Part shown: positions 45,615 to 53,258 of the stretch, one piece after another
How the letters are laid out: each line of letters opens with the position of its first letter
Numbering within the stretch: the stretch's first letter is position 1
Source of the DNA: Eledone cirrhosa
Lineage: Eukaryota
DNA: 64,000 nucleotides
Reading direction: 5' to 3'
Assembly (NCBI GenBank): GCA_964016885.1
Contig: OZ024764.1
Coordinates: forward strand, 7,750,001 to 7,814,000
Notes under the pieces: model-generated
What the model was told of the DNA's origin: nothing
What the model saw: the letters and a program-made list of their open reading frames with translations, nothing else
Databases searched by the model: none
Made by a program: the position numbers and the translations under genes

Positions 45615-48600
45615 ATGGTTCACGCGGGAGTATCTGCCTTCATCTGTTGCAGCCTGAATCAAACGAGTGTAGCACTCAATACCTACAGCGCACACACCGC
45701 CACAGCCGCCACAGCCACCACAACCACCCCCAACATCACGTCGCCACCCATCTCACCGATTGCGTCCACCGTCGCAGACGTACCACTCAACACCCTGAAA
45801 ATACTGATGCCCACCTCCCCCACCGCCCCCACCGCCCCCACCGCCCCCACCGCCCCCGCCTCCCCCATCACCACCGACCTTGGCAGTGCCGCTGCTCCGG
45901 TCCTTGTGACCGTACTCACCCTGCTCGCCCTTGTCACCAACTGCCTGCTCGTGCTGGTCGTGCGACGCTCCCCCAGCCTCAGGGGTTACGCCAACTACTA
46001 CCTACTGAACCTCTGCTGCAACAACATCCTGCTCTGCCTCTGTGCAGCGGCGCTGCTGTTGTCGACGGTAACGACAATGGCGGTGAAGACAGACGCACAG
46101 ACAACAATAAGGTCGCGGCCCGTTGGGCCGGCTTCCTCGGGTGCCACGGGTGAAACAAGCTCGCGGCACATCAGGTCAGCGTTCTTGGGTGCCACGGGTG
46201 AGATAGCGTCCTCAGGTGCCACAGGTGGTACCATGGGTGCAACAAGGTCGCGGCACGTCGGGGTACCGGGGTACTCAGGTGCCACGGGTGAAACAAGCTC
46301 GCGGCACATCAGGCCAGCGTTCTTGGGTGCCACGGGTGAGACAGCGTCCTCAGGTGCCACAGGTGGTACCATGGGTGCAACAAGGTCGCGGCACGTCGGG
46401 GTACCGGGGTTCTCAGGTGCCACGGGTGAAACAAGCTCGCGGCACATCAGGCCAGCGTTCTTGGGTGCCACGGGTGAAACAGCGTCCTCAGGTGCCACAA
46501 GGTCGCGGCACGTCGGGGTACCGGCGTTCTCAGGTGCCACGGGTGCAACAAGGTCAAGCCTTATACAATCCAGCTCCCTGGTAGGAAATCCTCCAGCAGT
46601 CCTGAGCATTGCACCATCAGCCCCTCCTCCGATATTGTCGACACCCACTTCATCAGGGCCTGAAGTCCAAACCCTTGCATCGTCAGCCCCTCCTAGAATT
46701 TTGGGTTTTAACCCATCAGGGTCTCTAGTACAAAATCATGAGATCCAAACCCTTGCACCATCATTTCGTCCTAGAATTTGGGGTTTCCCTTCATCAGTAC
46801 CTCCAGGAGTAAATACTCAACTCCAAATCCTTGCTTCATCAACCCCGCCTAAAAGTTGTAGTTTCACCTCATCAAGGGCTCTAGAAGCATATCCTAAAGT
46901 GCCAGTAATTGCCTCATTAGTCCTCCCTACTATGTCAGGCATTGATCCATCAGACCCTCTGGAAGAAAACCCTTCAGCACTGAGAATTGCGCTATCAGCC
47001 CTTCCTATAGTATCAAGCGCTACAGCTTCAAAACAAGCAATGTTCAGCCCTGCCCCACTAGAATATACACAGATGAAGCTCCTGCTATCTGACCCTGTCC
47101 TATCAGATCCTTCAGTACTTAGCTTTGCACATTCGACCCTTCTTAAAATTTTAGGGTTTAACCTATCAGGGCCTTTGAGAGCAAATCCTGAAGTATCAGG
47201 CATTGCACCCACATCCCTTCCTGTAGTATTGGGCCCTGTTGTATCATGTGCTGCACATCAAAGCCCCAACACCGCCTCACATCAAAGCCACAACACCACC
47301 TCACATCAAAGTCACAACACCACCTCACATCAAAGCCACAACACACCCCCACATCAAAAGCTCAGCCCTGCCGCATCAGGTTTTTTAGAGTCAAGTCCTT
47401 CATGGCTGGACATTTCCCCAACAAGGGTTACAGGGTCAGTCCAGCTGGTGTCAGAGCACATCCAAATTCCACCTGCAGTGTCTGACTCTACCCCATCCCA
47501 CCCTGCAGTCCCTAGACACGCCCCATCCCACCCTGCAGTCTCTAGCCACGCCCCATTCCACCATGCAGTTCCTAACCACGCCCCATTCCACCCTGAAATA
47601 TCTAGCCACGCCCCATTCCATTCTGCAGCATCTGGTCACGCCCCATTCCACCCTGCTGCCGCTAGCCACACCCCATTTCACTCTACAGTCCCTGGTCACG
47701 TCCCATTCCACTCTGCAGTCCCTAACCACGCCCCATTCCACTCTATAGTATCTAGCCACGCCCCATCCCACCCTGCAGTCCCAAACCACGTCCCATTCCA
47801 CTCTGCAGTCCCAAACCACGCCCCATTCCACTCTGCAGTCCCTAGCCACGCCCCATCCTATCCTGCAACGTCTGACTCCACCCCATCTCAGCCTGAAGTC
47901 CCACACCCTACCCAGTCCCAGCCGTCAATGCTGACCCCCGCTGCAACACCGATCTGCGGTGTCCAGCTTTTTCTATGCTCCCACTTCTTCCTGCAGTACT
48001 GTATGGGTTTTGCGTCGGTCAGCTATTACCACTGCTGGACGCTGCACCGGACGACGGTCAGTCTCCACGCCAGGAAGAAGTTTGTCGTTTATTCAATCGG
48101 GACCTCCTGGTTCCTCTCGTTGCACCTCAGTGCTGCCCTTGTTGTGGTCTTTGTGGAGGACCTCCTCGCTTGGACGGTTTTCACGTCACCGACCTCAGGC
48201 ATCGCTTGGATGGGAACGGTAACAACAACAACAACAACAGCAACTGCAACACTTCCAGCACGACCACCACCACCACCACCACCACCATCATCAACACCAC
48301 CACCACCATCATCATCATCAACACCACCACCACCACCATCGACAACACCACCATCACCACCACCACCACCACCATCATCAACACCACCACCACCAACAAC
48401 ATCACCACCACCACCACCACCACCACCACCATCGACAACACCACCGTCAACACCACCACCACCGCCACCATCAACATCACCACCACCACCATCGACACCA
48501 CCACCACCATCGACAACACCACCATCACCACCACCACCACCATCATCATCAACACCACCACCACCATCATCGACACCACCACCATCGACAACACCACCAT

Positions 48601-51600: not shown

Positions 51601-53258
51601 CACAACCACTACCATCACCACCACCACCACCACAACAAGCACCACCACCACCACCACCACTACAACAACCACCACCACTACAACAACTACCACCACCACC
51701 ACCACAACAACAAGCACCACCACCACCACTACAACCACCACCACCACCACAACCACTACAACAACCACCACCACCATCACCACTACAACCACCACCACTA
51801 CAACAACTACCACCACCACCACCACCACAACCACCACCACCACCACAACCACTACCATCACTACCACCACCACCACCACCATCACCACTCTCACTCTCAT
51901 TATTATTGTTATGCTATGATGATGATGATGATGATGATGATGACTGTAACAACAACACCAATAACAGCAATGGTTGTCATAGTGGTATTGGTGATGGTGG
52001 CGGCGGCGGCGGCGGCGGCGGTGGTGGTGGTGGTGGTGGTGGCGGTGGTATTGGCGGTGGTGTTGGTGGTAGTATCGGTGGTGGTGGCGGTGGTGTTGGT
52101 GGTGGTATTGGTGGTGGTAGTATAGGTGGTATTGGTGGTGGTGGTAGTATAGGTGGTATTGGTGGTGGCGGTAGTATAGGTGGTGTTGGCGACGGCACTG
52201 TTGGTAGTATAGGCGGTGGTGTTGGTATTGGTGGAGGTGGTGGTGTCGTTGGTAGTAGTGGGGGTAGTAGTAGTAGTAGTGAGGGTGACGACGTCGTTGG
52301 TATTGGAGGTAGTACTGGTTGTAGTGTTAGCAAAAAATATACAAATTGTTTCAGGGTAAAAAATCTCCATTTTCCCTTCCTGCCTCGAATGTCGGCCACG
52401 CGGGCCGACATTGGCCCCTGTTTTGATGACATCTCCCCACAGAATTACACCTCCACTACCACCGATACTGCTACTATCTCTAACACTGCCACCGATACTG
52501 CTACTACCACTAATACTGCCACCGATACTGCTACTATCTCTAACACTGCCACCAATACTGCTACTACCACTAACACCGCCACCAATACTGCTACTATCTC
52601 TAACACTGCCACCAATACTGCTACTGCCACTAACACCACCACCAATATACCCACTACCACTACCACTACCACTAATACTACCACCAATACTGCTACTACC
52701 ACTAACACCACTACCGATACTGTTATTGCCACTAACACCACTACCGATACACCCACTACCACTACCTCTACCACCAATACACCCACTACCACTAACACTA
52801 CCACCAATACTACCATTAACACTAGTACCACATGTACTGCTCCTACTACTAACACCACCGCCATCGTGACCACACCCACAAACCTGGCATCACCACCGCC
52901 ACCGCCACTCAACAGTTATTCCCGCCAATCCGTCCATGCCAACCCCTCCAGCCTGAGAAACACGATGAAAAACAACTTGGTTGTGGCGTTGTCCTTCTAC
53001 GCCCTCACCGCCCCCCTACTCATCTGTGCCGCCGTGGGCGCCGTGTCTCGGCCACACTCTGGCCCTGAGTGCCAACACCTGCTGTTAGCCCTTTACCAGT
53101 TGTTCCTGTTCAATGGGCTTATCTGTCCCGCCTATTATTTCCTCTTCAGCAAACACGTCAGACACTGTGCCCTACGGCTCTACTCCAGAGTCAAACATAA
53201 ATGGAGGGCCCGCCATTCAGTCGCCTCCTTCTCTTCTCTCATGCAGAGACACCAATGA
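45615..53258 (+). CDS. Giant single-ORF rhodopsin-like (class A) 7TM GPCR, ~2547 aa, with low-complexity expanded ECL1, ECL2 and ICL3
   Basis: Seven ordered hydrophobic helices: TM1 [17 protein letters not shown] + RRSPSLR; TM2 [18 protein letters not shown]3 [19 protein letters not shown]4 [15 protein letters not shown]5 [20 protein letters not shown]6 [19 protein letters not shown]7 [22 protein letters not shown]-terminal sequons NQT and NIT. No stop codon in 7.6 kb. Confidence 0.8.

Follow-up and report, generated by a model that had tools for sequence, protein, structure and literature searches.

In a window of 64,000 nucleotides (nt) from the genome of Eledone cirrhosa (contig OZ024764.1 of assembly GCA_964016885.1, positions 7,750,001 to 7,814,000 of the forward strand; coordinates below are those of the window), a single open reading frame (ORF) is predicted to encode an orphan class A-type G protein-coupled receptor (GPCR), denoted P0001, in which two extracellular loops (ECL1 and ECL2) and one intracellular loop (ICL3) are swollen by in-frame repeats. 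In our assessment, this is probably a functional, single-copy receptor, and its giant loops are likely to be tolerated, nearly neutral disordered filler that grew by in-frame slippage. The full-length protein, although likely, is a prediction from the DNA.

The frame runs from stop to stop over 2550 codons (45606-53258, forward strand), or 2,547 amino acids (aa) from the ATG at 45615, and the five other frames over the same interval contain 57, 95, 182, 56 and 146 stops. Arrays of (TA)n are absent between 45568 and 53968 and flank the gene on both sides; a candidate splice acceptor next to the upstream tract suggests an upstream non-coding exon. Short-read contigs cover 46448-48220, the span of this check, without gaps, with no differences in run X1 and 14 differences in run X2, and this part of the gene is therefore not an assembly artefact, with the proviso that the runs may derive from the assembly's own sample. 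Both runs also show a 3-nt deletion at 45859, in the N-terminal tail, which preserves the frame. The parts of the gene, with percent identities to the closest relative found (P0005; UPI0006955192, 934 aa), are as follows; TM denotes a transmembrane helix, and numbers such as 1.50 are positions in what we take to be the class A numbering.

45570..45578, forward strand: possible splice acceptor, directly after a (TA)n tract
45615..53258, forward strand: single open frame of the orphan class A-type GPCR P0001, 2,547 aa
45615..45890, forward strand: N-terminal tail, 92 aa, with two N-glycosylation sequons and a 9-bp repeat
45891..46067, forward strand: TM1-ICL1-TM2, with N1.50 at 45939 and Asn as residue 2.50 at 46023; 75% identity to P0005 (41/55)
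46068..47948, forward strand: ECL1, about 620-625 aa, with a 138-bp array, an old 78-bp duplication, and 24-bp and 30-bp arrays
47949..48218, forward strand: TM3-ICL2-TM4, with C3.25 at 47955, His 3.50 at 48030 and W4.50 at 48108; 71% identity to P0005 (57/80)
48219..49544, forward strand: ECL2, about 440 aa, a Pro/Ser/Thr triplet tract followed by a 51-bp array (27+24)
49545..49661, forward strand: TM5, with His as residue 5.58 at 49623
49662..52943, forward strand: ICL3, about 1,100 aa, with Asn/Thr, His-rich 102-bp, Pro/Gln, Asp, Gly and Thr/Asn 30-bp blocks
52944..53255, forward strand: TM6-ECL3-TM7, helix 8 and a short C-terminal tail; 60% identity to P0005 (49/81)

Pfam finds no match in the whole of P0001, and among its pieces TM1-2 alone matches 7tm_1, below the cut-off (E 0.00095; 19.1 bits against 30.5). 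An exhaustive protein search with TM6-7 returned 14 proteins, namely P0005, one false repeat match and 12 complete or fragmentary members of an orphan family (444-526 aa) that includes XP_064613078.1 of the chiton Liolophura sinensis and XP_074641308.1 of the nemertean Tubulanus polymorphus; the 7tm_1 cut-off is exceeded by six of these 14 proteins, which score 50-71 bits. A profile of 10 short relatives matches TM1-2, TM3-4 and TM6-7 of P0001 in this order (total E 2.8e-37). For the loop-deleted core, the score is 173.9 bits, compared to at most 8.5 bits for 200 shuffles. In a tree of 17 rows, rooted at the midpoint and including only six outgroup receptors, P0001 and P0005 are sisters nested within the family (100/100, stem 1.37), and the family itself forms a clade (100/100). 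When the genome was searched with the chiton protein, the two best and the weakest of five matches fell in the P0001 frame and no full second copy was found; TM6-7 matches once. By these comparisons, the P0001 gene belongs to a conserved family of spiralian orphan receptors of class A type and is the only copy of it found in the genome. A tick repeat protein (P0006) was dropped as a relative because its match was false, summed over repeats.

The helices of P0005 are 55-75% identical to those of P0001, and its structure model aligns with the NPY Y2 receptor (Z 26.7, root-mean-square deviation 3.1, 295 residues), all 50 rows shown being GPCRs; as modelled, P0005 folds as a class A bundle. The model of TM1-4 of P0001 contains four helices, with ECL1 as a low-confidence coil. 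Four fragments of P0001 modelled together gave a bundle score of 0.39, compared to 0.04 for the best control, with agreement between runs in at least 75% of contacts and a partner predicted local distance difference test (pLDDT) score of at least 57, a result that may reflect likeness to solved GPCRs. Among solved pairs, 51 of 78 reach the mark of this test, as do 2 of 108 mismatched pairs; marks of 0.60 or less belong to only 5 of the 78 solved pairs yet to all four passing mismatches. The result lends weak support to assembly of the modelled fragments as a bundle. In the hydropathy profile, six helices peak above 1.5 and TM3 is weaker; TM3 was located by homology and TM5 via P0005.

Other searches returned no further relatives or ligand assignment. 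TM3-4 alone had no sequence match in the PDB; with respect to ligand class, PDB matches of the family profile were scattered over peptide, amine, odorant and opsin receptors (E 1e-8 to 1e-5), and the atlas yielded generic 7tm_1 clusters only. Word-based searches retrieved none of 52 candidates with TM6-7 among proteins of 1400-4458 aa, none of 2001 with TM1-2 among proteins of 129-2000 aa (a weak search that also missed P0005), and P0005 alone of 7999 with its own core among proteins of 513-1635 aa. Neither P0001 nor the fragment of a neighboring zinc-finger protein, described below, was present in the protein collection by exact-sequence look-up.

A sequence-only reading of this stretch had described a class A receptor of about 2,550 aa, open over 7.6 kb and free of (TA)n tracts, with seven helices in canonical order split by inserts of about 620, 440 and 1080 aa. 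The frame, the (TA)n boundaries and the loop sizes agree with ours, and the seven-helix class A-type assignment holds on the family profile, the score of the loop-deleted core and the modelled fold of P0005, with homology being required for TM3. The expected 7tm_1 similarity is missing from the whole protein and sub-threshold in TM1-2, and the loop-deleted core is placed instead by its match to the orphan family. The same reading did not recognize the architecture from described GPCRs; our literature search likewise found no such loop sizes described, but the core marks P0001 as the orthologue of a normal-sized spiralian orphan family, which that reading had missed.

Class A anchors N1.50, W4.50, P6.50, P7.50 and Y7.53 are all retained in P0001, whereas the activation motifs are altered: N2.50, H3.50, H5.58 and C7.49 replace D2.50, R3.50, Y5.58 and the NPxxY motif. 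D2.50, D/E-R-Y, Y5.58, NPxxY and the disulfide between C3.25 and ECL2 are common but not obligatory in class A. Asn at 2.50 is also present in seven of eight short relatives; R3.50 is found in all eight, together with Y/F5.58, and His occupies both of these sites in P0001 and P0005. The alignment of the family (A2, consisting of P0008, P0010-P0013 and P0015-P0019) displays invariant ICL3 motifs and a YPxWY variant of NPxxY. P0001 has C3.25 without a Cys partner in ECL2, and the short relatives lack C3.25; the link between this residue and ECL2 is missing in many lophotrochozoan receptors (PMC11886862).

Between conserved anchors, all three loops are longer in P0005 than in the eight short relatives and longest in P0001: the spans are 26-32, 114 and 644 residues, respectively, from 2.50 to 3.25 (ECL1), 64-69, 89 and 505 from 4.50 to 5.58 (ECL2 with parts of TM4-5), and 143-174, 477 and 1112 from 5.58 to TM6 (ICL3). 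ECL1 is predicted to be disordered, contains no Cys, and has a weak phase-0 GT (46068) and AG (47921) at its ends; the copies of its old 78-bp duplication are 68% identical. Transposon insertion was rejected as the source of ECL1: the segment 46551-47250 occurs once in the genome and corresponds to this old internal duplication. ECL2 is likewise devoid of Cys and bounded by a weak phase-0 GT (48219) and AG (49544), and the unit of its 51-bp array also occurs, in matching frame, in the 24-bp array of ECL1. The repeat blocks of ICL3 surround two islands conserved in the family, at 50247 and 52422; no counterpart of a third island (A323-L324-E325 in P0008), which is invariant in A2, was found in P0001. 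Conserved islands and the same low-complexity blocks also occur in the loops of P0005 (about 100, 45 and 470 aa for ECL1, ECL2 and ICL3). The two proteins have in common a di-cysteine motif close to the beginning of the N-terminal tail and the order of the Pro/Gln, Asp, Gly and Thr/Asn blocks of ICL3; the shared block order and islands support the translation of ICL3.

As the sequence-only reading had noted, the repeat units are multiples of 3: this holds for each of the 11 minisatellite arrays within the ORF, and every gap between repeat copies is a multiple of 3 as well. Among three long ORFs of this genome, 25 of 25 minisatellites have such periods; outside these ORFs, the figure is 17 of 39 arrays (Fisher p 1e-6). 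The respective counts for microsatellites are 12 of 12 and 3 of 38. The comparison is partly circular, because an open frame served here as the definition of "coding". None of 300 local dinucleotide shuffles was stop-free for either ECL1 (mean of 14.5 stops) or ICL3 (mean of 25.6). The second haplotype carries 14 single-nucleotide polymorphisms (SNPs; 7 silent and 7 replacing), no stop and no indel, and under 18% simulated neutral change the segment 46551-47249 stayed stop-free in 88 of 5000 runs. These data support selection, beyond chance, for the reading frame of ECL1 and ICL3, and for these two loops the earlier claim of an ORF under selection stands. The amino acid sequence of the loops is likely to be nearly neutral, with no constraint detected: the ratio of replacing to silent changes per site (pN/pS) is 1.07 between the old 78-bp copies, 0.67 for six arrays taken together (19 silent and 31 replacing; p 0.09), and 0.44-0.52 for 13 SNPs in ECL1 (p 0.10-0.17).

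Under the scenario that we favor, selection would purge only stops and frameshifts while the loop residues drift. Slippage and unequal exchange would have lengthened the loops stepwise, from the state of the short relatives through that of P0005 to that of the P0001 gene, and the common unit of ECL1 and ECL2 would have been copied from one loop to the other. After the long stem branch, the change of the G-protein switch residues probably led to weak or atypical signalling, which in turn may have relaxed the limits on loop length. The mRNA is likely translated in full, and ECL1 and ECL2 would then pass through the Sec61 channel and probably become glycosylated; other exons of the genome have likely been inflated under the same pressure from repeats.

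Several observations weigh against this scenario. Against six ordinary GPCRs of the same genome, the core reaches no more than 7.8 bits (shuffles, up to 5.4), and Foldseek with the TM1-4 model of P0001 returned no match at E 0.001. P0005 is the sole close relative found, begins without Met and is known as a protein only, so that its loops may be a product of the gene model. Shuffled ECL2 is stop-free in 57 of 300 cases, within chance, so that the claim of selection on the frame does not extend to this loop and the caveat attached to it, that C/A-rich repeats are naturally poor in stop codons, is well taken here. With two of the three pN/pS estimates below 1, a weak constraint on the loop residues is also compatible with the data. 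Membrane insertion poses a further difficulty: in human multipass proteins, the median outer loop is 11 residues long and 2.9% exceed 100 (PMC13220792; PMC7619463), long outer loops seem to require switching to Sec61 (PMC7619463), and the helices beside them are usually more hydrophobic (PMC13220792). TM2-TM5 of P0001 show no such compensation, being no more hydrophobic than those of seven short relatives (1.31 vs 1.43 for TM3; 1.78 vs 2.03 for TM4). Two hydrophobicity scales were used, the values of one of them being assumed. Efficient insertion of the full-length protein is therefore disfavored.

This lack of compensation would be accounted for if ECL1, ECL2 or both were exitrons, spliced from many transcripts, with the long form a minor or regulated isoform, an alternative that we consider rather unlikely. 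Both loops open with a GTAAC donor-like site and close with CAG in phase 0, which also counts against the scenario of tolerated filler; their removal would leave outer loops of ordinary length, and exitrons with weak sites are known in insect odorant receptors (PMC10990081). However, in-frame Val and Gln codons give phase 0 in any case, and a constitutive intron would not keep ECL1 stop-free, as the shuffles indicate. Measured against what we take to be the donor consensus, the two donors match 6 of 9 letters and lack G at +5, whereas a score of 7 is reached at five other sites of the ORF; the acceptors contain 10-15% T, compared to 50% at the candidate acceptor upstream of the gene. Furthermore, P0005 has short motifs of P0001 just inside both putative introns, a 225-nt contig of run X4, a run whose kind is not on record, spans the ECL1 donor unspliced, and no splice joins were present in the four runs examined, none of which is on record as RNA. 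If the loops were nonetheless spliced out, these would be kilobase exitrons in a GPCR.

Selection for length and composition, rather than sequence, is another alternative, in which ICL3 would be a scaffold for signalling and ECL1 and ECL2 would form a glycosylated mucin-like shield or sense mechanical stimuli. Pro, Ser and Thr make up 59% of ECL2, with 14 sequons, and 38% of ECL1, with three, and tandem repeats rich in these residues match the mucin-like (PTS) composition, the outside topology being predicted; the order of the ICL3 blocks common to P0005 is also in line with this possibility, and selection at the level of composition would be invisible to pN/pS. Against it, no amino acid constraint was detected, ECL2 of P0005 is of near normal length, cytosolic ICL3 has the same Thr/Asn make-up with 51 sequons that are unusable there, and unrelated genes are equally inflated, as DNA slippage predicts. 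The earlier proposal of mucin-like or scaffold domains maintained by selection is not borne out, given that the residues change about as fast as silent sites, and we regard this alternative as improbable. Decay is harder still to sustain. In that case, the gene would be non-functional under relaxed selection, with eroded switches and a frame open by recent history or partly through assembly error in the repeats. The replaced R3.50 and Y5.58, the long stem branch, the neutral loops and the limits of the read-contig check, which did not extend over ECL2 and ICL3, would all fit. Yet P0005 has the same His substitutions while the helices remain 55-75% identical, there is no second copy in the genome to take over, and 7.6 kb contain zero stops where shuffles give about 14 in ECL1 and 26 in ICL3, which makes decay very unlikely.

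Inflation of coding exons is not confined to the P0001 gene. A frame for a muscarinic-type acetylcholine receptor (L008 1537-9189; G000:C7:5976036-5983688, forward strand) spans 2563 codons; its ICL3, of about 2,200 residues, is built from triplet-multiple repeats (45, 15 and 33 bp, and triplet runs), and the frame stops inside TM7, likely at an intron. A C2H2 zinc-finger frame adjoining the GPCR gene (window 62448-64000, continued in L015 1-4706; 2,086 codons) harbors nine in-frame minisatellite arrays with units of 9-117 bp. Since these two frames are also swollen, inflation recurs in this genome; giant outer loops are seen only in P0001. Four further aminergic or muscarinic-type single-frame receptors with a long ICL3 (L009 1896-4724, L010, L011 and L013; 943, 695, 738 and 654 codons, respectively) are less repetitive. 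A 685-codon frame at L012 was rejected as a long receptor, being a (TA)n read-through. Among the best 147 of 3215 candidate 7tm_1 frames in the genome (150 rows less three repeats), the median is 371 codons and one frame, that of the muscarinic-type receptor, exceeds 1,000; the P0001 gene is not among them. A genome scan with 7TM_GPCR_Srw revealed no further giant frame (none of 33 over 611 codons).

Elsewhere in the window, there is a near-complete non-LTR (long terminal repeat) retrotransposon on the reverse strand (27400-33576), with the following parts:

31188-32387, reverse strand: zinc-knuckle ORF1
27400-30531, reverse strand: endonuclease/reverse transcriptase ORF2, 1043 codons
32475-33554: 72-bp array of 15 copies upstream of the ORFs

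The forward strand has two related frames for reverse transcriptase, both with a PHD finger after them (6264-8102 and 22539-24569), and a 69-bp array of about 16 copies (4342-5424) is open for 315 codons on the same strand.

It is conceivable, if doubtful in this full form, that P0001 is made as a full-length receptor of 2,500 residues, without canonical G-protein switches, with outer loops of 440-620 residues and no compensation in the helices, and that it represents a hidden class of giant repeat-inflated receptors and transcription factors that repeat-masked annotation splits or misses. Should the full-length protein be made, it would break the short-loop rule of multipass biogenesis; should the loops be neutral filler, the biology would be the extreme of a known process. 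The natural series of ECL1 lengths in one family (15-30, about 100 and about 620 residues) without compensation offers a test of the Sec61/hydrophobicity model and of the amount of disorder that a GPCR can tolerate, and P0001 points to genes that repeat masking would fragment and to conserved, unstudied spiralian receptors.

Our literature search, mostly of openly readable papers without their supplements, found no description of such a receptor, and nothing on record loop lengths came from PMC13022164, PMC12084609 and PMC10828670. Known receptors approach individual features of P0001. In the human complement C3a receptor, a class A member, ECL2 is unusually long (about 172 aa), flexible and glycosylated (PMC10518620); ECL2 of P0001 is about 2.5 times longer and lacks the Cys for the disulfide with 3.25, and ECL1 is huge as well, whereas the ECL1s of lophotrochozoan chemoreceptors measure 15-20 aa (PMC11886862). 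A long disordered ICL3 is tolerated in aminergic and muscarinic receptors, as it appears to be in P0001, but reaches 257 aa in the Sepia D2 receptor (PMC13661766), compared to about 1,100 aa here. The spiralian orphan family has the seven helices in the same order, both ICL3 islands, the motif at the start of TM6 and helix 8, in proteins of 444-526 aa rather than 2,547 that keep R3.50 and Y/F5.58 and lack C3.25; P0005 has shorter loops and, at the protein level, no long minisatellite arrays. The coding triplet repeats of Dictyostelium discoideum have been interpreted as largely non-functional sequence shaped by mutation and drift (PMC3460934); in P0001, by contrast, a multipass membrane protein has outer loops lengthened by hundreds of residues through minisatellites with units as long as 138 bp. 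Taken together, P0001 is best explained as an extreme case of a known process acting on an unstudied receptor family.

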